Part shown: in pieces, positions 20,006 through 62,210 of the stretch | How positions within the stretch are numbered: position 1 is the stretch's first letter | Layout: each line of letters opens with the position of its first letter | Assembly (NCBI GenBank): GCA_030698385.1 | Contig: JAUYLZ010000022.1 | Span: 1,301-65,300 of the forward strand | Direction of reading: 5' to 3' | Length of the DNA: 64,000 nt | DNA from: a bacterium | GTDB taxonomy: Bacteria > Patescibacteriota > Patescibacteriia > Patescibacteriales > XYC2-FULL-47-12 | Made by a program: the position numbers and the translations under genes | The notes under the pieces: generated by a model | Seen by the model: the letters and a program-made list of their open reading frames with translations, nothing else | What the model was told of the DNA's origin: nothing | Databases searched by the model: none

Positions 20006-23000
20006 TTATAATTGCCGGAATTCACAAATATCACGAAAGTCGCAAAATTTGCAGAGCTGAGAAGGCTTGGCCGGAAACTCGTTATTTTTTATCGCCGCTT
20101 CAATATTTTTAATCCGGCTGATGATTTTTTCCTTCATATCTATAATTTCATCCGGCGTACCCAAAAAATTTATTTCCGAATTATCATCAAGATAATAAAA
20201 CTGCAAATTTCCTACTTTTCTTTTCATCACTTCCTGCGCGGCCATTTGATAAATCAGGAGCTGTTCTTTGTCTTCGGCGGTAACTTTTCCCGCTTGCTTG
20301 GGCCGGCCGGTTTTGTAATCAACAATATTTATTTCGTCTTTGTCTCCCGCGTCAATTCGATCAACTTTTCCGTACATCGTGTACTCTCCGAGTCTTAGCC
20401 GAAAGCCCTTCTCCAGCAACTCCACTTGCGGCCAGCTGTCTGCGTGTTTGGCATAAAAGTCTTTTAAAATCTGCCTGCCTTTTTTTTGATATTTTATTTT
20501 TTGCTGTTCATCTTCATACCAGTCATCAATCCAATACTCATCGTATAAAGCCAGCAATTCTTTTAAGTTTACTAAATTATTTTTATCTGCTTCGTCTTTC
20601 TTTTTAGATTCAAATAAACTTACTTGCTGTTTTTGGCCGCGCGTAAGCATCAGAGTAAAAAACTGCTGCAGGGTCAAATGCATGGTCTGGCCGAAACTAA
20701 AGGGCGCTTTGCCCTGGCGCGGAATTTTTAGCACATGCGCGAAGCGATACTGATACGGACAATTTTTAAAGGCTTGCAGCTGGGTGAATGAATAAAAAGC
20801 GGGCAATGAATATTGATGCTTAGCAATGGCTTTAGCGGGTTGCTTGGTCAACTCTTTAAACTTTACAGCATTGACTGACAGCGCTTGCTCTTTTATATTA
20901 TCATCAATTAATTCAGCCTCAATTAAAAATCGTGATGGCTTCTTCTTTCTCGCGCCGCCATAATCCGGCGCCCAAGAAAAATAAAGTCCTTTTTTCGCGC
21001 GCGTCATCGCGACATAAAATAAACGCCGCTCTTCTTCCAGATGCGTATCGCCTTGGGGCAAAATTTCTTTGACCAGCGCGTCCGGCAGCGCGATTGGATC
21101 ATGGCGTTCGGTGGTCGGAAAGCGCAGATCAACCATATTAACGATAAAAACATATTTAAACTCAAGTCCTTTGGCACCGTGCACGGTCATAATTTTTATC
21201 ATCTCAGGCCCTGCCTCCGGATCAGTGGCAATGGCGCCATCATTGCCTGACTCCATTTCCAGCTCAATTTCTGCTAAAAAGTTTTTTATGCTTGCTCCGC
21301 CGCTACTAGCGAGTGGGTTATCATTCTCAAACTCCTTTACGCGCTTCATAAAAGCGTTTAATAGTCTGGCGGCATCACGCGCGTCTTGTTCGGGCAGTTT
21401 GCTGACATATTGAAGATACCCACTCTCATTCATAAAGGAAAAAATAATTTCGCTCGCTTTTTTGGTTTTAACCAGAGCGCTTTGCCTTTGGACTATTTCA
21501 ATTAATGATTTTACCTTTTGTCCCACGCCTTTGCCAAAATTCGCGGCAAATTTAGTCGCCTGCCATAATGACCAGGCTTTTTTCTTGGCGCCGTTGAGCA
21601 ATTCCATTATCTCTTCGTGGTCTAAACTAAAAATAGGAATATTCAGCACACGATACATGGCATTGGCTTCATGATAATTATCAAGCAATTTTAAATAGCT
21701 GATAATATCCATAATCACCGGCTGAGAATAAAGACCCTGCGCTGATAAAAAAACATAAGGCAGCCGCGCGATGTCCAGCGCGTTGGTAAATTCTTTGGCG
21801 GAACTATTGGCGCGGACCAAAATCGCAAAGTCGTTCCACGTGCAGTCTTTATCTTTTACTTTTAATTCAGCGATTTTCTCCACCACTTTGTTTACTTCAT
21901 CTTGCAGGTCGTTGCCTTGAATCATTTCAATTGTTCCCGCTTCTTTGTTTTGAGAAATTAATCTTTTGTCAATTGGGTTAGTTATGCGCTGTGCGTTATG
22001 CGCTGCGCGAAGCTGTACCTCTAACCTATTGGGATTGTTCAGCTGGATAAACTCATAAGCAGTATCCAAAATGCTCTGCGCGCTGCGATAATTGTCGGTC
22101 AAAACTACTTCTTGGGAATTTTTATAATCTTTTTTGAACTGTAAGATATTGCTCATAGAAGTTCCCCTGAACCGAAAAATACTTTGATCATCGTCCCCTA
22201 CGACAGTTAAATTTTTTCCCTGTGGAGTCAGCAACTTTACTAACTCATACTGCGCCCAATTCGTGTCCTGAAACTCATCAACTAAAATATATTTAAACTT
22301 TTCCTGAAATTTTTGTAAAACCGCCAGTCGCTCTTTAAAAAGTTTCAGCGTATAATTAATCAAGTCGCCAAAATCAAGCATATTATTATCTAATAATAAT
22401 TGCTGGTAAACATGATAAGCGTTCGCCACCTCATTAATTCGACTAACTTCTTGCTCCAGCACTTCATGGGTTATTTTTCCGTCTAAGTCCAAAACTCCTT
22501 TCAGACGTCCGCGAATTTTATCGGTGGAAGTTTTGCCATCAAGGTTTTGCCGTAGCTCTTCAGCGTATTCCAAATATTCTTTCGCGGTTATGACTTCATC
22601 TTTGGCGCGGGAAAAGTGTTTGAGCATTGCGGAGATAAATTTCGTCGGGTTGCCCAGCGGCCGGTAGTAATCCAGCTCAAACTTGTCTAAATTTTTTTTA
22701 ATCAATGCCCACTGGCCGAATTCGTTCAATAATTTAAAATTAGTCGGCAGGCCAATGTCAAATCCATGTTGCTGTAAAATTTTTTCACAAAAACCATGAA
22801 AAGTCATAATCCACAAATCCACATAGCCATAAGGCAGAAGTTTGTCCGCGCGTTCAGCCATTTCACCGGCCGCTTTTTCGGTAAAAGTCAGCGCCAAAAT
22901 TTCGTCCGGTTTGGCCAATTCTTGCTCAATCAGCCAGCCGATTTTTTGGGTAATCACAGTCGTTTTGCCCGTGCCCGCGCCGGCAATAATGAGCAGAGGA

Positions 23001-23068
23001 CTGCCCGTGTGTTCAACGGCTTTTTTTTGGTTTTTGTTGAGGTTATACATATATACAGTAGTATACAA
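20006..23068 (-). CDS. UvrD/PcrA-type superfamily 1 helicase fused to a C-terminal PD-(D/E)XK (Cas4/AddB-like, Cys-cluster) nuclease
   Basis: LIIAGAGTGKTTV (Walker A), VDEFQDTN, helicase motifs, then FKNCPYQYRF...VDRID...IVDYKTG...CKFCDFRDIC at the C-terminus. Confidence 0.85.
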   Translation of the reverse strand: MYTTVYMYNLNKNQKKAVEHTGSPLLIIAGAGTGKTTVITQKIGWLIEQELAKPDEILALTFTEKAAGEMAERADKLLPYGYVDLWIMTFHGFCEKILQQHGFDIGLPTNFKLLNEFGQWALIKKNLDKFELDYYRPLGNPTKFISAMLKHFSRAKDEVITAKEYLEYAEELRQNLDGKTSTDKIRGRLKGVLDLDGKITHEVLEQEVSRINEVANAYHVYQQLLLDNNMLDFGDLINYTLKLFKERLAVLQKFQEKFKYILVDEFQDTNWAQYELVKLLTPQGKNLTVVGDDDQSIFRFRGTSMSNILQFKKDYKNSQEVVLTDNYRSAQSILDTAYEFIQLNNPNRLEVQLRAAHNAQRITNPIDKRLISQNKEAGTIEMIQGNDLQDEVNKVVEKIAELKVKDKDCTWNDFAILVRANSSAKEFTNALDIARLPYVFLSAQGLYSQPVIMDIISYLKLLDNYHEANAMYRVLNIPIFSLDHEEIMELLNGAKKKAWSLWQATKFAANFGKGVGQKVKSLIEIVQRQSALVKTKKASEIIFSFMNESGYLQYVSKLPEQDARDAARLLNAFMKRVKEFENDNPLASSGGASIKNFLAEIELEMESGNDGAIATDPEAGPEMIKIMTVHGAKGLEFKYVFIVNMVDLRFPTTERHDPIALPDALVKEILPQGDTHLEEERRLFYVAMTRAKKGLYFSWAPDYGGARKKKPSRFLIEAELIDDNIKEQALSVNAVKFKELTKQPAKAIAKHQYSLPAFYSFTQLQAFKNCPYQYRFAHVLKIPRQGKAPFSFGQTMHLTLQQFFTLMLTRGQKQQVSLFESKKKDEADKNNLVNLKELLALYDEYWIDDWYEDEQQKIKYQKKGRQILKDFYAKHADSWPQVELLEKGFRLRLGEYTMYGKVDRIDAGDKDEINIVDYKTGRPKQAGKVTAEDKEQLLIYQMAAQEVMKRKVGNLQFYYLDDNSEINFLGTPDEIIDMKEKIISRIKNIEAAIKNNEFPAKPSQLCKFCDFRDICEFRQL

Positions 23069-23174
23069 TAATTGAGCATAAAAAAAAGCCCGCTCGTTTT
23101 TGATGCCGGCAAAGTTTGATCAACAAGACCCCTTGTGATACGATATAAACGTAATAACTTATCAATAATATACT

Positions 23175-23381
23175 ATGGTTTCTCTTAACATTGCGGTTAA
23201 AACATCAACAAAATCCGCTAAAAAATTAATAATAGAATTAGACGTGAATAAATTTGAAAGAATTGCCGCGAGTTTTGGTTTATTTCGCGATGACTTTATA
23301 GACAGTATTCAGCGGGCGGAGCAAGACTACCGGGCAAGACGATTCAAAAAAATAGCATCGCTTAAAGATTTACGTAACTAA
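23175..23381 (+). CDS. Antitoxin-like protein, paralog of 18145..18372
   Basis: The C-terminal IQRAEQDYRARRFKKIASLKDL parallels IEQARKEYKRGNFIKAKSLADF of the other antitoxin. A toxin remnant follows 7 nt downstream. Confidence 0.5.
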   Translation: MVSLNIAVKTSTKSAKKLIIELDVNKFERIAASFGLFRDDFIDSIQRAEQDYRARRFKKIASLKDLRN

Positions 23382-23387
23382 ATAAGC

Positions 23388-23589
23388 ATGATAACAATTA
23401 TCGTTACTGATGAGTTTAGAAAACGCTATCAACGGTTGCCGGCGCCAATTAAAAAGAAAGCTGAAAAGCAAGAACAATTGTTCCGCCACAATCCATTTCA
23501 CCCGCATTATCTTTCGCTTTATTGACGGCGAAACGGCGCTGTTGCTGACTGTTGGAGAACATAGCTGGATTTATAACCTAAAATTCTAG
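23388..23589 (+). pseudogene. Decayed RelE/ParE toxin (internal deletion plus frameshift)
   Basis: Frame 1 gives MITIIVTDEFRKRYQRLPAPIKKKAEKQEQLFRHNPFHP..stop, which matches the N-terminal half of toxin 17879..18148. A second frame gives IFRFIDGETALLLTVGEHSWIY, which matches the C-terminus (IIFDRIDGGDIFFLSVGKHDIY). The central ~25 codons are missing. Confidence 0.6.
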
Positions 23590-23593
23590 ATGT

Positions 23594-23629
23594 AAAAAAA
23601 CCCCTACGAACATCCTGTTGCGTAGGGGG
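23594..23629 (-). terminator. Rho-independent terminator of the 282-aa orphan gene
   Basis: CCCCTACG-N12-CGTAGGGG. On the minus strand it is followed by T7. Confidence 0.65.
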
Positions 23630-23645
23630 TTTAATGAACACAATA

Positions 23646-24494
23646 TTATTTAATTGGTGATTTGGCTTCCGCCTCATCCACCATTCCTTGCAGATCATTT
23701 CTGATCTGCAAAATCCTCTCGTTAGAGATAAAACGAGCCGCCAATTGACCGGCGGCAATAAATTTTTTCATCATATGCCATTGTTTTGGACAATAGCAAG
23801 GCGAAACGCCTGCTATATCCAAAACACCTCTAACCTTTGATAACGGCCCGCCGACTTTGGCAACGCCGTTAAAAATAGTCATGATGAAAGCCATGATGAA
23901 AGCTCTGGATACAGAGCAAAATTTTTCTTCATCCGCAAAGTTACGTCGGATGAAAAGAGACTGCACCATATCCTCAACGGCCTTAGCCGCCTTGAACGCG
24001 GCCTCCGGGCCACCAGAGGAAAACATCCGGTCAATTTGCCCAGATTCGTATCCGAGCTTGACCAGCTGCCGACGCATGCTGTCAGCAAATTTTTGCTTTT
24101 CCGCCTTTCTTTCGGGACTGTCATAATCCCATTTTTTTCCCTCACGATCATTTTCATCTTTATAAAGATAAAAACAATATGTGGGACACTTAGGACTATT
24201 GTCCCGCCAATAAATACATTCAATGATTATTTCCGACTTGCGGTCGGAGATGAGTTCATTGAATTTCAATCCGGTTACCTCCTCAAATTCTGCAACCGGA
24301 AAATAAAACTCTTCTGGAGATGGGAATTCATTACTCCAGGTACTTTTTTCTTCCCACCTTCCCGCCCGATACACGGACTGGAAAATTTTCCATGCATCTG
24401 GCTTGTTTACCGAATCAAATGGTTCAATAGTGGCTACTACTCCGCCACCATAAAAATTTCCTAATTTGTCAACTGCTTTTTTTGTTATTTTCAT
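23646..24494 (-). CDS. Orphan hypothetical protein (282 aa from ATG 24494; alternative GTG start at 24524)
   Basis: Long ORF with a dedicated consensus promoter, a long leader and a terminator. No recognisable domain. There is a hydrophobic segment AFIMAFIMTIFNGVAKVGG near the C-terminal third. Confidence 0.55.
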   Translation of the reverse strand: MKITKKAVDKLGNFYGGGVVATIEPFDSVNKPDAWKIFQSVYRAGRWEEKSTWSNEFPSPEEFYFPVAEFEEVTGLKFNELISDRKSEIIIECIYWRDNSPKCPTYCFYLYKDENDREGKKWDYDSPERKAEKQKFADSMRRQLVKLGYESGQIDRMFSSGGPEAAFKAAKAVEDMVQSLFIRRNFADEEKFCSVSRAFIMAFIMTIFNGVAKVGGPLSKVRGVLDIAGVSPCYCPKQWHMMKKFIAAGQLAARFISNERILQIRNDLQGMVDEAEAKSPIK

Positions 24495-24657
24495 GAGTTT
24501 TTTGCCAGTGATTCTTCGGCTCACTGACCAGCCGATGGAGTTTAAGCGCTAAAGCGCTTGATAGCCGCTTCAGAGATGATAATGACTCCAAAGCAGCTTC
24601 CAGACGGTTTTAACAGTAAAACCACCTCAAAGCTGCTCGGGAATGCATGTTTTTAAA
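24495..24657 (-). promoter_or_regulatory. Structured 5' leader (candidate cis-regulatory RNA) of the orphan gene
   Basis: Nested stems on the minus strand: AGCAGCUU..[GGUUUUA-cugu-UAAAACC]..AAGCUGCU; GGAGU..[AAGCGC-uuua-GCGCUU]..ACUCC. Two mutually exclusive hairpins (CGGCU..AGCCG versus CAGUGA..UCACUG) lie next to the start codon. Confidence 0.35.
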
Positions 24658-24663
24658 GAGCTT

Positions 24664-24692
24664 ATTATATCATACTTTCAAAATAATGTCAA
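24664..24692 (-). promoter_or_regulatory. Consensus sigma70 promoter TTGACA-17-TATAAT
   Basis: The minus strand reads TTGACAttattttgaaagtatgaTATAAT. Confidence 0.6.
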
Positions 24693-24809
24693 TCAAGAGT
24701 GCTTGGAATAACAAAAATATAGCTAAAATTAGCTATAAAATGATACAAAAAAGTTCAAATTTGGCAAAAGAATAAAACTAACTTTTTGAAAGAAAAAAAA
24801 CAAAAAAAT

Positions 24810-24838
24810 TTGACAAAAATAAATATATCTATTAAGAT
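24810..24838 (+). promoter_or_regulatory. Promoter-like TTGACA-17-TAAGAT upstream of the nfeD-flotillin operon
   Basis: Hexamers read directly from the sequence. A strong SD (AGGAGGTGA) precedes ATG 24911. Confidence 0.4.
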
Positions 24839-24910
24839 GTGTTGATTTAGCAAAAATGCTAAATAACGCACATTACACAATTTTTTTTAAAATAAAGGAG
24901 GTGAAAGGAA

Positions 24911-25438
24911 ATGATAATTACCTTTCTGTCAATTGCTTTAGGCGGTTTCGTGGTTTTGATGTTCACTTTGGCCTTTGGCGGCGACCATGATGTCGACCAC
25001 GACTTTGATCATGATTTTGATTCTGACGGAGATCACGGCAGCATTGGCGCCCATTGGTTTAGCGTGAAGGTGCTGTCTGCTTTTGCGACGGCGTTCGGCG
25101 CGACCGGGGTCATCACCTGCGTCTATAACTTTTCCGATTTTTGGAAGCTGGTTATCTCTACCGGAGTCGGCATTGTTATCGCCGCTATTGTTGACGCGGC
25201 CGTATCAATGCTCTACAAACAGCAGACGACCACCATCATTCGGACAAACGAATGTGTGGGAAAAACCGGAACGGTAACGCTGGGGATTTTAGCTAACGGC
25301 ACCGGCGAGGTCAGAATAGAGCTGGAAGGAATGGCCATTAACAAACCGGCTCGCAGCCAAAGCGGCGAGGAAATAAAACAGGGAGAGGAGGTTGAAGTTT
25401 TGTCAGGAGGCTCACCGCTGATAGTAAAAAAATCCTAA
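24911..25438 (+). CDS. NfeD/YqiJ-like membrane protein
   Basis: N-terminal TM helix, a His/Asp-rich loop GGDHDVDHDFDHDFDSDGDHG, further TM helices and a C-terminal OB-like segment (GKTGTVTLGILANGTGEVRIELEG...EVEVLS). It lies immediately upstream of a flotillin gene. Confidence 0.7.
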   Translation: MIITFLSIALGGFVVLMFTLAFGGDHDVDHDFDHDFDSDGDHGSIGAHWFSVKVLSAFATAFGATGVITCVYNFSDFWKLVISTGVGIVIAAIVDAAVSMLYKQQTTTIIRTNECVGKTGTVTLGILANGTGEVRIELEGMAINKPARSQSGEEIKQGEEVEVLSGGSPLIVKKS

Positions 25439-25494
25439 TAACAATATTAGGTAAACTCAAAAAACGGAAAAATATCTGAAAAAGGAGAACAAAC

Positions 25495-27306
25495 ATGTTA
25501 GAGTGGTTTAGTTTAGGTAATGTAATAGTGCCAATAATGGTACTATTGATAATTATTTCTTTCTTCGCGGTCATGCGCATTATGGCGCGCAATTATCTAA
25601 AGGTGCCGCCCAACCAGTTGGCAGTAATTTTTGGCCGCAAGTACAAGTACCGAGCCAGCGACGGCTCAACGCAAACGCGCGGCTTTCGTCTAGTCAGCGG
25701 CGGCGCGGCATTCATCATCCCACTACTTGAACATCACAAGGTAATGTCGCTGGACGCGTTCCAAATTGAAACCATCATCAAGAGCGCTCCCTCATCTCAA
25801 GGAGTAAGGGTGACTGTGTCGGCTGTTTCTTCTTTAAAAATCGGCAAGGAAGAAACCATGCTGGAGGCCGCCGCCAGTCGTTTCCTTGATCAAGGACCGC
25901 AACAGATAGAGGAGTTCTGCAAAAGCATTGTAGCTGGCGGACTGCGCGGCGTGGTCGCTACCATGACCGTTGAAGAGTTGGTCAAAGAACGGACCAAATT
26001 CGGCAACAAAGTTCAGGAAGACGTGGCCGGCGAACTGCAAAAAATCGGCCTGAATATTGATAACTTCATTATTCAGGAAATAAGCGATGATCAAGGTTAT
26101 ATTGACGCCTTGGGAAAAAAACAAACTGCGGGTGTAAAACGAGATGCCGCCATAGCTGAAGCGGAAGCGACACGCGACCAAAATATTAGTGTTGCTGAAG
26201 CCCTGCGTGAGTCTGACCAGAAGTCAAGCGAAGCAAGGCGAGCGGGAGAGAAGGCAAAGGCCGAGGCCGAACAGCAGATTTCTGATGTCAGCCAATTGCG
26301 GGATGTTACCATCGCGCAAAACACGGCTCTGGTGCAGGCTGAACAAACGAAAATTAAAATCGCCGCCGACATCGCCGCCGCGCAAAAAAATAAAGAGTTG
26401 CGCATCGCCCAAGTTGAGGCCGAGCAAGCTGAAGTAGAAGCTCGGACCAAGTTGCAGGAAAAAGAGCATGAAAGAAAAGACGCGGAACTGAAAGCCACGA
26501 TTGTGGTGCAGGCAGAACGCGAAAAAGAGGCCGCTATTACCACAGCCGATGGAGCAAAAGAAGCGGCGCGGCGAGTAGCGGAAGGCGAACGGATTAAAAT
26601 TGAACAAGCGGCTGAAGCCGGCAAAAAGAAATCAGAATTGGAGGGTGAGGGAGTAAAATTACGCCAAACAGCTGAAGCTGATGGTCGCAAAGCGGCCGCA
26701 ACCGCTCTCCAGGCAGAAAAAGAAGCCGAGGCCAAAGGTAACCAGGCAAAACTTGAAGCTGAAGCCGAAGGAACCAAGGCCAAACTTCTGGCCGAAGCTG
26801 AGGGCATTAAAGCCAAACTTACAGCCGAGGCCGAAGGTATTGAAAAGAAAGCCGAGGCCTATCAGAAGCTGGATCAGGCTGGCAAACTTTTACTCATACT
26901 TGAGCACTTGCCTAAAATTATTGAGTCTCTGGGTAAGGCGATTAAGGAGGCTGGCGAAGGCACCTTGGCTCCAATGGCGCAGGCAATAGGCACTGGCTTG
27001 GCCGGTGTTGAAGAAATACGCCTCACCGACTTCGGCGGTGCTTCCGGTAGAGATGGCATCGGCAGTGATGTTCTTTCTCGTTTTACCGGCACTATTCCTG
27101 ATGTGGTGTTTAATCTTCTGGCCAAAGCGCAAGCTATGGGTATGGGCGAAAAGGTTGCGGAAATCGGAAAACAATTCGGTTTTGATTTCAGCTCTCTGTT
27201 TGGAGGTAACGCTCAGTCCGTAAGTTTGGCAAGCAGCACGGAGCCAACCGCAAACGAACTGACCGCCGCCCCCGTAGAAGAAGAGGAGAAAATCAACAAT
27301 GAGTAG
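25495..27306 (+). CDS. Flotillin (SPFH/band-7 family, YqiK/FloT-like)
   Basis: N-terminal TM helix, an SPFH domain, a long Glu/Ala-rich coiled coil (AEAEGTKAKLLAEAEGIKAKLTAEAEG) and a flotillin C-terminal region. Confidence 0.9.
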   Translation: MLEWFSLGNVIVPIMVLLIIISFFAVMRIMARNYLKVPPNQLAVIFGRKYKYRASDGSTQTRGFRLVSGGAAFIIPLLEHHKVMSLDAFQIETIIKSAPSSQGVRVTVSAVSSLKIGKEETMLEAAASRFLDQGPQQIEEFCKSIVAGGLRGVVATMTVEELVKERTKFGNKVQEDVAGELQKIGLNIDNFIIQEISDDQGYIDALGKKQTAGVKRDAAIAEAEATRDQNISVAEALRESDQKSSEARRAGEKAKAEAEQQISDVSQLRDVTIAQNTALVQAEQTKIKIAADIAAAQKNKELRIAQVEAEQAEVEARTKLQEKEHERKDAELKATIVVQAEREKEAAITTADGAKEAARRVAEGERIKIEQAAEAGKKKSELEGEGVKLRQTAEADGRKAAATALQAEKEAEAKGNQAKLEAEAEGTKAKLLAEAEGIKAKLTAEAEGIEKKAEAYQKLDQAGKLLLILEHLPKIIESLGKAIKEAGEGTLAPMAQAIGTGLAGVEEIRLTDFGGASGRDGIGSDVLSRFTGTIPDVVFNLLAKAQAMGMGEKVAEIGKQFGFDFSSLFGGNAQSVSLASSTEPTANELTAAPVEEEEKINNE

Positions 27307-27751
27307 CTCTTATCCCCTCTTACGCTCCGAGGATACTGATGGTTTAGTCATCCATTGTTCAGATCCAAGGTTCCAGTCGGCATTCCGCCAGTTTATCAAA
27401 AATGAATTGGGCCTGAATAATCCTTGTTTAATTATTGTCCCCGGCGGCATTCATGATTTGGTATCGTTAGCGCGCCCTAAAGCCGCGCGCCAGCTAAAGG
27501 ACCAGCTGGAATTCATCATAAAAAATATGAGGGTAAAACGCATTATCCTCATCAATCATGATGACTGCAGATGGTACGCCAAATGGAACGCGCTGGTGCC
27601 GGGAAAAATTGGCGATGAAATCGTCAATAACCTAGCCAAAGCGGCCGAAAAAATAATGGAGAAAAAATTCGGTCTGGAAATTGAAATTTATTTAGCAAAG
27701 ATTCAGGCTAACAATGTAATATTTGAACGCTTGGACACTCCGGCTAAATAA
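27299..27751 (+). CDS. Minimal beta-carbonic-anhydrase-like protein (150 aa)
   Basis: IHCSDPRF ... LIIVPGG ... ILINHDDCRW reproduces the beta-CA spacing CxDxR / xxAGx / HxxC. Its start overlaps the flotillin stop (ATGAGTAG). Confidence 0.45.
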   Translation: MSSSYPLLRSEDTDGLVIHCSDPRFQSAFRQFIKNELGLNNPCLIIVPGGIHDLVSLARPKAARQLKDQLEFIIKNMRVKRIILINHDDCRWYAKWNALVPGKIGDEIVNNLAKAAEKIMEKKFGLEIEIYLAKIQANNVIFERLDTPAK

Positions 27752-27774
27752 AATCTTTTTGATTATTTAATTGC

Positions 27775-27808
27775 AAAAGCCCATCTACAGTTTAGATGGG
27801 CTTTTTTC
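27775..27808. terminator. Bidirectional terminator between the two convergent CA-like genes
   Basis: AAAAGCCCATCTA-N5-TAGATGGGCTTTT. Confidence 0.6.
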
Positions 27809-27829
27809 TTTGCTTAAAATAAAAAATTT

Positions 27830-28252
27830 TTATAATATCTCTTCAAATTCAATCTCGCGGCCGCTGTCATCCCGCAAATTCGCCCAAAAAAGCTTTACAT
27901 TCATGCTGGGATTTTTGGCTTTAATTATTTCCGCCGCTTTTTTCATGTCAGCGACTTGTTTGGCTTTTTCTGCCACCGCGTCCGCAAAAGTATACTCAGC
28001 CGCGTAGGCGCCGCATTGGCTGTGATGAAATAGCACCACGCAATGCGAATGGTGAAGCTTGGCGGAAAGCGCGATTTGGCCCAAAAGCATTTCGCCCGGT
28101 TCGCTGTCGTCGGCTATTACTTTCGCCGCGCCGGCGAGCGAAACCAAGTCGCAATCGCCGATGTAGCCCTGCGCCTCCATCCATTTATTCATCTCCCGCG
28201 TCAGGCGGAAATCCATACAGCGTACTAAAACATGCGTACATTGATGAGACAT
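27830..28252 (-). CDS. Minimal beta-carbonic-anhydrase-like protein (140 aa)
   Basis: VRCMDFRL ... GDCDLVSLAGA ... VVLFHHSQCGAY closely follows the pattern of small archaeal-type beta-CAs (TCMDSRL / KNAGN / GHTDCGM). It lies 26 nt downstream of the antiporter gene. Confidence 0.5.
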   Translation of the reverse strand: MSHQCTHVLVRCMDFRLTREMNKWMEAQGYIGDCDLVSLAGAAKVIADDSEPGEMLLGQIALSAKLHHSHCVVLFHHSQCGAYAAEYTFADAVAEKAKQVADMKKAAEIIKAKNPSMNVKLFWANLRDDSGREIEFEEIL

Positions 28253-37971: not shown

Positions 37972-38000
37972 TTGACAAAATATAGTAATATTATTATAAT
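37972..38000 (+). promoter_or_regulatory. Divergent consensus promoter TTGACA-17-TATAAT facing the tRNA cluster
   Basis: TTGACAaaatatagtaatattatTATAAT, back to back with the atp promoter. Confidence 0.5.
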
Positions 38001-38044
38001 TATAACTGAAAAAATTAAAATGAGAAAGTCTGACAAAAAACCGC

Positions 38045-38073
38045 TTGACAATTTTAATTATTGATCTTAACAT
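38045..38073 (+). promoter_or_regulatory. Second promoter-like element TTGACA-17-TAACAT, ~20 nt before the first tRNA
   Basis: Hexamers and spacing read directly from the sequence. Confidence 0.4.
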
Positions 38074-38091
38074 AACTACATTGCAAACAAT

Positions 38092-38166
38092 CGGGATGTA
38101 GCTCAGTTGGCAGAGCGCTCGCTTAATGAAAGCGAATGGCCGCAGGTTCGAATCCTGTCATCTCGA
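38092..38166 (+). tRNA. tRNA-like gene with canonical acceptor, D and T arms but an expanded or shifted anticodon arm; anticodon not assignable
   Basis: Acceptor CGGGATG/CATCTCG, D-loop AGTTGGCA, T-arm GCAGG-TTCGAAT-CCTGT. The anticodon region CTCGC-TTAATGAAA-GCGAA is either a 4-bp stem with a 9-nt loop or a shifted 5-bp stem TCGCT/AGCGA with loop TAATGAA that lacks U33. Confidence 0.6.
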
Positions 38167-38184
38167 ATTTATTTTAAAAAAAAT

Positions 38185-38257
38185 ACGCGCGTAGCTCAGT
38201 TAGCAGAGCGTTTGCTTGGTAAGCAAAAGGTCACTGGTGCAAATCCAGTCGCGCGGT
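38185..38257 (+). tRNA. tRNA-Thr (anticodon GGT) with atypical elbow and 1:72 mismatch
   Basis: Anticodon arm TTTGC-TTGGTAA-GCAAA. The D-loop is AGTTAGCA (A at the G18 position) and the T-loop is TGCAAAT (G at the U55 position). The acceptor ACGCGCG/CGCGCGG gives A1:G72. Confidence 0.7.
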
Positions 38258-38277
38258 TTTCCCTGAGCTCTTTATAC

Positions 38278-38349
38278 GGGTCCGTAGTTTAATTAAAACG
38301 CTTGCCTGATAAGCAAGAAATGTGGGTTCCAATCCCAACGTGAGACCCG
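38278..38349 (+). tRNA. tRNA-Ile(GAT)-like gene with 5-nt D-loop and a 3-nt bulge in the acceptor stem (possible pseudogene)
   Basis: Anticodon arm CTTGC-CTGATAA-GCAAG. The D arm is GTTT-AATTA-AAAC with no GG. The T-loop is TTCCAAT. The 3' acceptor strand CG[TGA]GACCC pairs with GGGTCCG only if TGA bulges out. Confidence 0.5.
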
Positions 38350-40051: not shown

Positions 40052-40056
40052 AAAGC

Positions 40057-40176
40057 AAGTTTCAAACTTGTTTTGCGAGTAGCAAAATTGTTTGAAACTT
40101 ATGCTGCATGCTACTTTAGTATAATCAGTAAAAGTTTAAAACAGTTCGCCTCAGACGGCGAACAAGTTTTAAACTT
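40057..40176. repeat. Two consecutive long hairpins with related outer stems (AAGTTTMAAAC ... GTTTKAAACTT)
   Basis: Hairpin 1 at 40057..40100 has the inner stem TTTTGC/GCAAAA. Hairpin 2 at 40132..40176 has the inner stem AGTTCGCC/GGCGAAC. Both lie in the cvpA-tsaC spacer, and hairpin 2 overlaps the cvpA stop. Confidence 0.7.
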
Positions 40177-42349: not shown

Positions 42350-42374
42350 AAATTTTATGTAAGTATGTTATATA

Positions 42375-42476
42375 ATGCAAATCTACGAATGATATGCAAA
42401 TACCTCAAATTGCGAGCCATACAAATTTGCATAAAAAATATTTTGAAGTATTTGCATAAATTTGAGGATTTGCATT
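42375..42476. repeat. ATGCAAAT-type spacer element, copy B, forming a long inverted repeat (nrdA-nrdB spacer)
   Basis: ATGCAAATACCTCAAATT (42398..) pairs with AAATTTGAGGATTTGCAT (42455..). The 5' part is ~90% identical to 30181..30217. Confidence 0.8.
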
Positions 42477-42485
42477 ATATTTATC

Positions 42486-61466: not shown

Positions 61467-61700
61467 TTACAGTTTCAGCAATTCTTTGAGTTTAGCTTGG
61501 TCAAATCCGACCACAATGTTGCCATCAATATCAATTACCGGTACGCCCATTTGGCCGGACTTGGAAATCATATCTTGCTGTGCTATCTGATCAACCGTAA
61601 CGTCTTTTTCGGTGTATGCAATGTTATTTTGTTTAAAGTACCCCTTGGCCGCGTTGCAATACGTGCACGTTGGAGTTGTATAAATGATTACCTGTGACAT
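61467..61700 (-). CDS. Glutaredoxin-like protein (NrdH/YruB type)
   Basis: 77 aa, VIIYTTPTCTYCNAAK CxxC motif, GVPVIDIDG. Confidence 0.8.
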   Translation of the reverse strand: MSQVIIYTTPTCTYCNAAKGYFKQNNIAYTEKDVTVDQIAQQDMISKSGQMGVPVIDIDGNIVVGFDQAKLKELLKL

Positions 61701-61713
61701 ATATTTTCTTTTA

Positions 61714-62010
61714 TTAAATTAAACCTAAAATACATTTTACAAATTCGTCGTTTTGCCTGACTTGATAGCACATCATCTGTCCGTTGCGTTCATGATTGAC
61801 CAACTTGCGCATCTCAAGAATGCGCAACTGCTGTGAAACCGCCGAGACGCTGATTTTTAAAATTTCGGCAAGTTCACTGACGCAAATTTTTTTATCCTGC
61901 ATTAACAGTTTAAAAATTCGATAACGGCTTTCATCTCCCAGCGCGTCAAACATTCTGATTAATTGCTCATCTTTTTCGGTCAAATTTTCTTTTAATTTTT
62001 TTAAATCCAT
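61714..62010 (-). CDS. ArsR/SmtB-family transcriptional regulator
   Basis: FDALGDESRYRIFKLL...CVSELAEILKISVSAVSQQLRIL winged-helix pattern. Confidence 0.8.
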   Translation of the reverse strand: MDLKKLKENLTEKDEQLIRMFDALGDESRYRIFKLLMQDKKICVSELAEILKISVSAVSQQLRILEMRKLVNHERNGQMMCYQVRQNDEFVKCILGLI

Positions 62011-62210
62011 ATTTTTATATAATTTAAGTGTTTAAGCAATTACTTAATATTATAAACTAAAAATTATTACTGTCAAGAACGCTTGTATTATTATTTTTAC
62101 CGTGTTAATATACAGTATTGATACAAGTTGTGGATAATTATTTTGACCAAAAGGTTTTAATAATATAATCTATATATACTTTAGACATTTTTATTTACTT
62201 ATGTTTTTCT

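Follow-up and report, generated by a model that had tools for sequence, protein, structure and literature searches.

A hairpin-saturated orphan gene with a consensus promoter and a structured leader in a Falkowbacteria genome

Stem-loops at the 5′ end that stabilize mRNA, and long structured 5′ untranslated regions (UTRs), are found in E. coli ompA and cspA and in B. subtilis aprE. The layouts of the IS110 bridge RNA, the IscB omega-RNA and the retrons combine a strong promoter, a structured RNA and a single open reading frame (ORF). In the T4 gp32 operator, a pseudoknot of about 28 nt comes first, and the ribosome-binding site is contained in the unstructured element, longer than 40 nt, that comes next (PMC535899). 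Bacteria in which Shine-Dalgarno (SD) sequences are scarce need start regions that are unstructured and rich in A (PMC6847099, PMC7043885). Here these systems are compared with an orphan gene (ORFan) for a protein of 282 amino acids, which is encoded on the minus strand of a 64,000-nt stretch of a Falkowbacteria genome (assembly GCA_030698385.1, contig JAUYLZ010000022.1, positions 1,301 to 65,300), called the window in the following. An earlier note on this DNA had pointed out the perfect promoter of the gene and its highly structured leader, and had suggested a riboswitch or another cis-regulatory RNA. Our analysis indicates that the most notable feature is a different one, namely a coding region saturated with hairpins, in a strict ORFan that is located in what looks like an insertion hot spot.

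The new observation is that the whole transcript, and not the leader alone, is packed with hairpins. Both strands of the 64 kb were scanned in 170-nt segments at a coarse step, with a regression to correct the folding energies for base composition. Of the 30 most structured segments, about 14 were located in the ORFan gene or overlapped with it. Comparison with dinucleotide shuffles gave z values of -10.2 for positions 23590-23950 and -6.4 for positions 23951-24494, both on the sense strand, whereas the sense strand of a helicase control (22000-22360) gave a z value of +0.16. When the comparison was made with synonymous-codon shuffles, which leave protein and codon usage unchanged, the ORFan coding region had a z value of -7.7 and none of the 150 shuffles was as stable, compared to values between -2.0 and +2.3 for 13 control genes. 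The density of local hairpins with at least 7 Watson-Crick pairs was 14 per kb in the ORFan; across control genes with a total length of 19 kb, it was 3.7 per kb.

The mismatches in the interior of these hairpins were also counted. The ratio of G.U to A.C was 17:6 on the sense strand compared to 59:44 in the control; by our own arithmetic, this gives a one-sided binomial p of about 0.02 against a 1:1 ratio, and the result is weaker against the control ratio. The excess of G.U leans modestly toward RNA-level structure on the transcribed strand. The antisense strand of positions 23646-23950 had a z value of -9.1, and because both strands fold, the hairpins could also have originated at the DNA level or as neutral palindromes.

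Judged by its codon statistics, the ORFan is clearly coding. A 3-periodic Markov coding score was positive only in the annotated frame, and the value of 3.3 was about 4 standard deviations above a stop-free, non-periodic null (-2.9 +/- 1.6). The base composition at the codon positions was closely similar to that of the host genes. A spurious ORF or a pure non-coding RNA locus was ruled out by these two results. A second assembly of sample SRR13727534, from Logan, was identical across 6849 nt.

The earlier note had called the gene an orphan without a recognizable motif, and the searches support this more strongly than was stated. The protein had no relative among about 15 billion proteins, and matched only itself in a word search of 5.8 billion protein clusters and when 1.84 billion representatives were scanned in full with HMMER. 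Pfam returned a single match below threshold, to DUF5333 (E 0.019; score 15.6 bits, cut-off 27), and nothing was found in NCBIfam, PHROGs, PADLOC or the PDB. There were no significant internal repeats. Structure prediction, which the earlier note had proposed, was run with AlphaFold, but the resulting models were unusable, with predicted local distance difference test (pLDDT) values of 37 for the full protein and 49 for the C-terminal half. The protein probably has an accessory or island-borne function.

One explanation for the hairpins is that they are a functionless by-product of a young or fast-evolving foreign gene, in which inverted repeats arose through template-switch or fold-back mutations and have not yet decayed, and the leader would then be part of the same phenomenon. 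A perfect stem can result from a single template-switching event, as has been documented (PMC8794818, PMC10710096). The strict ORFan status of the gene is consistent with such an origin, as are its coding score, which at 2.8 to 3.3 is below the genome mean of 7.0 +/- 2.8, a perfect 12-nt tandem duplication inside the gene at 23880-23903, the folding of both strands and the insertion hot spot. However, the host-like composition at the codon positions argues against a very recent arrival or a de novo birth, and about 15 independent hairpins in 1 kb are far above the genome background. In addition, G.U mismatches outnumber A.C on the sense strand, which suggests that selection acted on the RNA, and the perfect promoter together with the strong terminator imply a maintained expression unit. 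An origin as a by-product is considered unlikely. The positions of the features are listed in Table 1.

Table 1. Features of the ORFan locus, in positions of the window.
Feature	Position	Strand	Description
Sigma-70 consensus promoter	24664..24692	-	-35 TTGACA 24692-24687; -10 TATAAT 24669-24664
Predicted 5′ UTR, about 163 nt	24495..24657	-	fold z = -4.36; no Rfam match; no terminator-like site and no second promoter inside
Upstream ORF, 12 codons	24610..24648	-	MHSRAALRWFYC*; predicted from sequence
Stem-loop 1	24582..24648	-	core hairpin 24638-24591 with 21 pairs, 4 of them G.U, -26.7 kcal/mol
Middle module	24537..24589	-	hairpin CUGAAGCG..CGCUUUAG (24573-24549) or AAGCGC/GCGCUU (24559-24544)
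Candidate compact H-type pseudoknot	24505..24535	-	stem S1 UCGGC/GCCGA, loop L1 UGG, stem S2 UCAGUGA/UCACUGG, loop L3 AGAA
Unpaired A-rich initiation region, about 55 nt	24450..24504	-	around AUG 24494-24492; no SD
ORFan coding sequence, 282 amino acids	23646..24494	-	32 kDa, pI 8.4, a single hydrophobic stretch around residues 198-216
Intrinsic terminator	23594..23628	-	stem CCCCUACG/CGUAGGGG 23628-23601, then U7 23600-23594
Lineage-specific insertion, about 4.7 kb	23069..27829		between Pro_CA_2 (27830-28252) and the UvrD/PDDEXK helicase (20006-23050)

The promoter and the terminator are both present as the earlier note had described them. The two promoter hexamers match the consensus at 12 of 12 positions, and the 17-nt spacer ends in TGA, which produces an extended -10 element (TGn at 24672-24670). 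A search of the window with the pattern TTGACA-N16-18-TATAAT returned three perfect sites compared to an expected number of 0.04. Another of these sites (TTGACA-N17-TATAAT) is located upstream of a tRNA-His/tRNA-Thr cluster, and the remaining one (62049-62076, minus strand, 16-nt spacer) is located 5′ of an ArsR-like small ORF that is followed by a glutaredoxin gene. Because the other two sites precede genes of this kind, the perfect motif is taken to mark real and strong promoters in this genome. The ORFan promoter would be expected to fire strongly and probably constitutively, and the transcription start predicted from it is at about 24657 +/- 3. The terminator consists of an 8-bp stem with an inner mini-helix (-16.8 kcal/mol), and is common to the ORFan and a toxin-antitoxin-like pair that converges on it tail-to-tail.

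At the other two promoter sites, a few details were recorded. The promoter of the tRNA cluster, together with tRNA-His and tRNA-Thr(GGT), occupies positions 37972-38340 on the plus strand; the anticodon that ARAGORN reports for tRNA-His is ATG, which is unusual. As a third tRNA-like element, positions 38283-38340 have a partial match in Rfam (40 bits, model positions 6-65) and no ARAGORN call. The ArsR-like ORF and the glutaredoxin gene (61467-62010, minus strand) both lack an SD.

The leader had been described as GC-enriched amid an AT-rich spacer and as containing nested helices, and it is: its GC content is 41-42% compared to 20-28% in the adjoining spacer, and every one of the helices is present in the sequence. 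The minimum free energy of the leader was -58.6 kcal/mol compared to -41.2 +/- 4.0 kcal/mol for dinucleotide shuffles, and none of the 200 shuffles was as stable. The base of stem-loop 1 is lengthened by the pairing AUG.CAUUCC/GGAGU.CAU, and either form of the middle module can be enclosed by GGAGU (24589-24585) and ACUCC (24541-24537). The GGAGU/ACUCC helix of the earlier note is therefore present with a qualification, since GGAGU can pair either with the 5′ AUUCC or with the 3′ ACUCC, depending on the context that is folded. The possibility that the leader is a degraded coding region was rejected; a 47-codon open stretch in another frame was not significant. The leader has no tandem repeats.

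The two hairpins next to the start, CGGCU/AGCCG and CAGUGA/UCACUG, had been described as mutually exclusive. Both exist, but they clash at only 1-2 bases, depending on the register, and neither of them spans AUG 24494. Because the overlap is this small, the two helices could coexist as the candidate pseudoknot listed in Table 1. Motifs like this candidate were found only 4 times in 128 kb (both strands), a count that is to be read with the search criteria having been set post hoc on one sequence.

To describe the translation start, transcripts were folded from the predicted start to 150 nt inside the ORF, and the pairing probability was averaged over positions -15 to +15. The mean value of 0.28 around AUG 24494 was the lowest of 46 genes (average 0.50 +/- 0.12). 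With this value in an A-rich open stretch, the AUG is exposed, and it is hidden in no predicted state. The earlier note was correct that there is no SD before ATG 24494. However, a recognizable SD within 20 nt of the start was found in only 8 of the 47 long ORFs of the window, and translation in this Falkowbacteria genome seems to start without an SD in most cases, so that the missing SD of the ORFan is uninformative. An alternative start at ATG 24451, with AGGA upstream, was rejected because it is out of frame. The alternative GTG 24524, which may also serve as a start, would fall inside the pseudoknot, but ATG 24494 is the start chosen both in the deposited annotation and in the Logan gene call. 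In its missing SD, its A-rich and minimally paired start and its SD-poor genome, the ORFan is similar to the SD-independent initiation described in Bacteroidetes and in E. coli without anti-SD pairing (PMC6847099, PMC7043885), with the difference that the case made here, for one Patescibacteria genome, rests on sequence statistics.

The explanation that we tentatively favor, with a probability somewhat short of even, is that the ORFan is a self-contained accessory transcription unit that is strongly and constitutively expressed, in which the hairpins stabilize the mRNA and the leader keeps the A-rich start open. The consensus sigma-70 promoter with its extended -10 element would produce a strong constitutive transcript of about 1.07 kb. 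This transcript would begin with a 163-nt 5′ UTR that contains three stable stem-loop modules, continue with a single-stranded A-rich stretch of about 55 nt around AUG 24494 and a hairpin-filled ORF of 282 codons, and end at the strong intrinsic terminator. The RNA structure would then act on the metabolism of the mRNA and not in sensing. Hairpins at the 5′ end, within the gene and at the 3′ end may result in a compact, nuclease-resistant message, while the self-folding modules of the leader would leave the A-rich start free for SD-independent initiation.

This explanation fits the open start, the absence of an expression platform, the SD-poor genome and the structure throughout the transcript. 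The ORFan is similar to ompA, cspA and aprE in that it combines a strong promoter, stable hairpins within a 5′ UTR of about 160 nt and a start region that is accessible, and it differs from them in that the base of its first hairpin is about 10 nt from the predicted 5′ end and in that the dense structure runs on through the coding region. Several points weigh against stabilization as the explanation. Classical 5′ stabilizers are located nearer to the end than the first hairpin is here, and the two strands fold nearly equally. The transcription start is only predicted, and the level of expression and the stabilizing role are inferred. A stabilizing role also leaves unexplained why this gene alone should be built in this way, as another orphan at the same junction (locus L084, described below) has an unstructured mRNA, and the ORFan is a single example without comparative support.

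Regarding the suggestion of a riboswitch or another cis-regulatory RNA, one part was supported and the other was not. There is a real, non-random structured leader behind a consensus promoter, and the leader very likely acts in cis on its mRNA. Switching was not supported: there was no match in Rfam and no terminator, and the AUG is predicted to be open. The scan of the leader against Rfam 15 resulted in no relevant match at the gathering threshold or at E <= 10, with only chance hairpin matches (mir-1278, CyVA-1), which agrees with the earlier statement that the leader could not be assigned to a known class. An expression platform of a riboswitch was not found in the leader, as there is neither a terminator nor a helix that sequesters the start. 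Because the coding region is even more structured than the leader, a discrete aptamer is less likely to explain the folding signal. Compared to riboswitches and the leaders in Rfam, the ORFan leader shares a long stable 5′ UTR, a strong promoter and some alternative pairings, but it has no family match, no expression platform and no conservation, and its folding is not confined to the leader.

Searches for related leaders gave similar results. No homologous leader was found by blastn in phages and plasmids, in which the one match was a chance match of 42 nt. Exact and degenerate patterns of stem-loop 1 and of the pseudoknot had no matches in two scans of metagenome contigs and two scans of viral contigs. 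A covariance model made from the single sequence, which was run against the window and 23 loci, detected, apart from the leader, only the leader's palindrome on the other strand and, in locus L003, a long hairpin of a generic kind.

A true cis-regulatory operator in the leader is nevertheless an alternative to be weighed, either as a new small-ligand riboswitch or, more plausibly, as an autogenous operator of the type of T4 gene 32. In the autogenous version, the pseudoknot would nucleate binding of the ORFan protein, which would then spread over the adjacent unstructured A-rich start. The predicted geometry would fit that of the T4 gp32 operator, since a 31-nt candidate pseudoknot (24535-24505) of a rarely found type is located directly 5′ of the long unpaired A-rich start stretch (PMC535899, PMC3014915). 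Further similarities are a protein of about 300 amino acids and an mRNA that is apparently built for stability, and the alternative partners of GGAGU and the folding z value of the leader could also be expected of an operator. However, there is no sequence relationship to gp32 or its operator, and the ORFan pseudoknot is predicted, so that the analogy is functional only. No Rfam family, no terminator and no AUG-sequestering fold were found. The pseudoknot criteria were post hoc, no homologs were detected that could provide covariation support, and the protein has no recognizable RNA- or single-stranded DNA-binding domain, with structure models that are unusable. Overall, we consider an operator rather unlikely.

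Control through the upstream ORF was also considered. According to this explanation, ribosomes on MHSRAALRWFYC would open up stem-loop 1 at its 5′ arm, re-partition the pairing of GGAGU and in this way alter the fate of the downstream mRNA. The AUG of the upstream ORF has A/U-rich surroundings and is separated by about 10 nt from the predicted transcription start, its UAA stop adjoins the apical loop of stem-loop 1, and the alternative pairing of GGAGU on which such a control would act does exist. However, an ORF of 12 codons is expected by chance, and there is neither a downstream terminator nor an occluded start to act on. The leader also differs from a leader-peptide attenuator, as the upstream ORF has no regulatory codon run and the leader has no terminator. 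This type of control is very improbable.

It is also conceivable that the protein has a partner in a functional structured RNA, formed by the transcript or by its leader, either as a dual-function RNA or as a guide-, bridge- or antitoxin-like module on a mobile or defense islet. The promoter, the structured RNA of about 160 nt, the single mid-sized ORF and the variable locus resemble the IS110 bridge RNA, the IscB/TnpB omega-RNA and the retron msr-msd, the structure across the transcript is extreme, and a toxin-antitoxin-like pair adjoins the gene. The comparison fails in other respects. The protein matched no DEDD/RuvC, RuvC-HNH or reverse transcriptase domain in Pfam, PHROG or PADLOC; no flanking repeats above chance and no terminal inverted repeats were found around the ORFan, and there was no second copy in the window or the fetched loci. 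There is no terminator between the leader and the ORF, and Rfam gave no match to HEARO or to group I or group II introns. In contrast to type III toxin-antitoxin systems (ToxIN-like), the ORFan leader has neither tandem repeats nor a terminator, and there is no PADLOC match and no ToxN-like domain. Such a functional RNA is considered quite improbable.

A related view goes beyond an mRNA: the ORF could be embedded in a large structured RNA, namely the whole transcript of about 1.07 kb, or the locus could encode an RNA-protein module in which the pseudoknot-bearing leader or the hairpin-rich message is bound by the ORFan protein. We regard this as improbable; if true, a hot spot in a genome of the candidate phyla radiation would carry an RNA-protein system that is both new and self-contained. 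Should the hairpins throughout the gene be under selection, they would represent a clear bacterial case of a coding gene whose nucleotide sequence owes more to the structure of the RNA (or DNA) than to codon choice. Such a case would be relevant to the stability of mRNA and to translation without an SD in Patescibacteria, for which we know of no experimental work. With one example, the ORFan is a curiosity and not a new class of regulator.

The ORFan is part of a lineage-specific insertion that also contains a degenerate toxin-antitoxin-like pair and an nfeD-flotillin-CA-like operon. The adjoining helicase is of the UvrD/PcrA type with a PD-(D/E)XK nuclease domain, and its best relatives, with about 65% identity, are from Candidatus Falkowbacteria and other Patescibacteria. 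The gene order in the relatives is ATP synthase, (Na/H exchanger), Pro_CA_2, helicase, DciA, pilin, PheS and PheT, and the gap between Pro_CA_2 and the helicase is 78-240 nt in loci L085 and L082. In locus L084, the same junction contains an unrelated orphan of 362 amino acids with its own near-consensus promoter. The mRNA of this orphan is not unusually structured (z = -0.5), which rules out hairpin richness as a common trait of the orphans in the hot spot. In Falkowbacteria, orphan or accessory genes appear to accumulate at the Pro_CA_2/helicase junction, which would be a hot spot for unrelated orphans, each with its own strong promoter.

As the earlier note had stated, the ORFan diverges from the nfeD-flotillin operon. 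The note had also raised the question of whether the protein co-occurs with NfeD-flotillin in other genomes; tblastn of the ORFan against the fetched flotillin and Falkowbacteria loci and against the rest of the window did not support such a co-occurrence (best E 0.32). The nfeD-flotillin-CA-like operon (24911-27751, plus strand) has strong SDs (AAGGAGG, AAGGAG and GAGGAG) and a GC content of about 50%, and the closest flotillins among the GTDB representative genomes are from Lachnospiraceae, with about 32% identity. With strong SDs and this GC content in an SD-poor genome, and with such distant relatives, the operon looks foreign, which suggests that it was acquired horizontally.

On the other side of the ORFan, the convergent toxin-antitoxin-like pair is located at 23175-23589 on the plus strand. 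Its first gene encodes a DUF2683-like protein of 68 amino acids (E 9e-5, below the Pfam cut-off). The second gene appears to be split by a frameshift, with the N-terminal half (MITIIVTDEFRKRYQRLPAPIKKKAEKQ...) in one frame and the C-terminal half (...RIIFRFIDGETALLLTVGEHSWIY) in another. We take this gene to be a RelE/YafQ-like toxin; it had no match in Pfam or PADLOC.

Strong folding was also observed at two sites elsewhere in the window. The most structured single 170-nt segment of the 64 kb is at 40052-40174, between Sua5/YrdC-like and CvpA-like genes, where there are two long near-perfect hairpins, GTTTAAAACTTGTTCGCC..GGCGAACTGTTTTAAAC and AGTTTCAAAC..GTTTGAAACT, which are probably a pair of terminators. 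The spacer between the genes for the large and small subunits of ribonucleotide reductase (42350-42485) folds strongly and contains several direct and inverted copies of ATGCAAAT/ATTTGCAT, which may form a binding array for a regulator.

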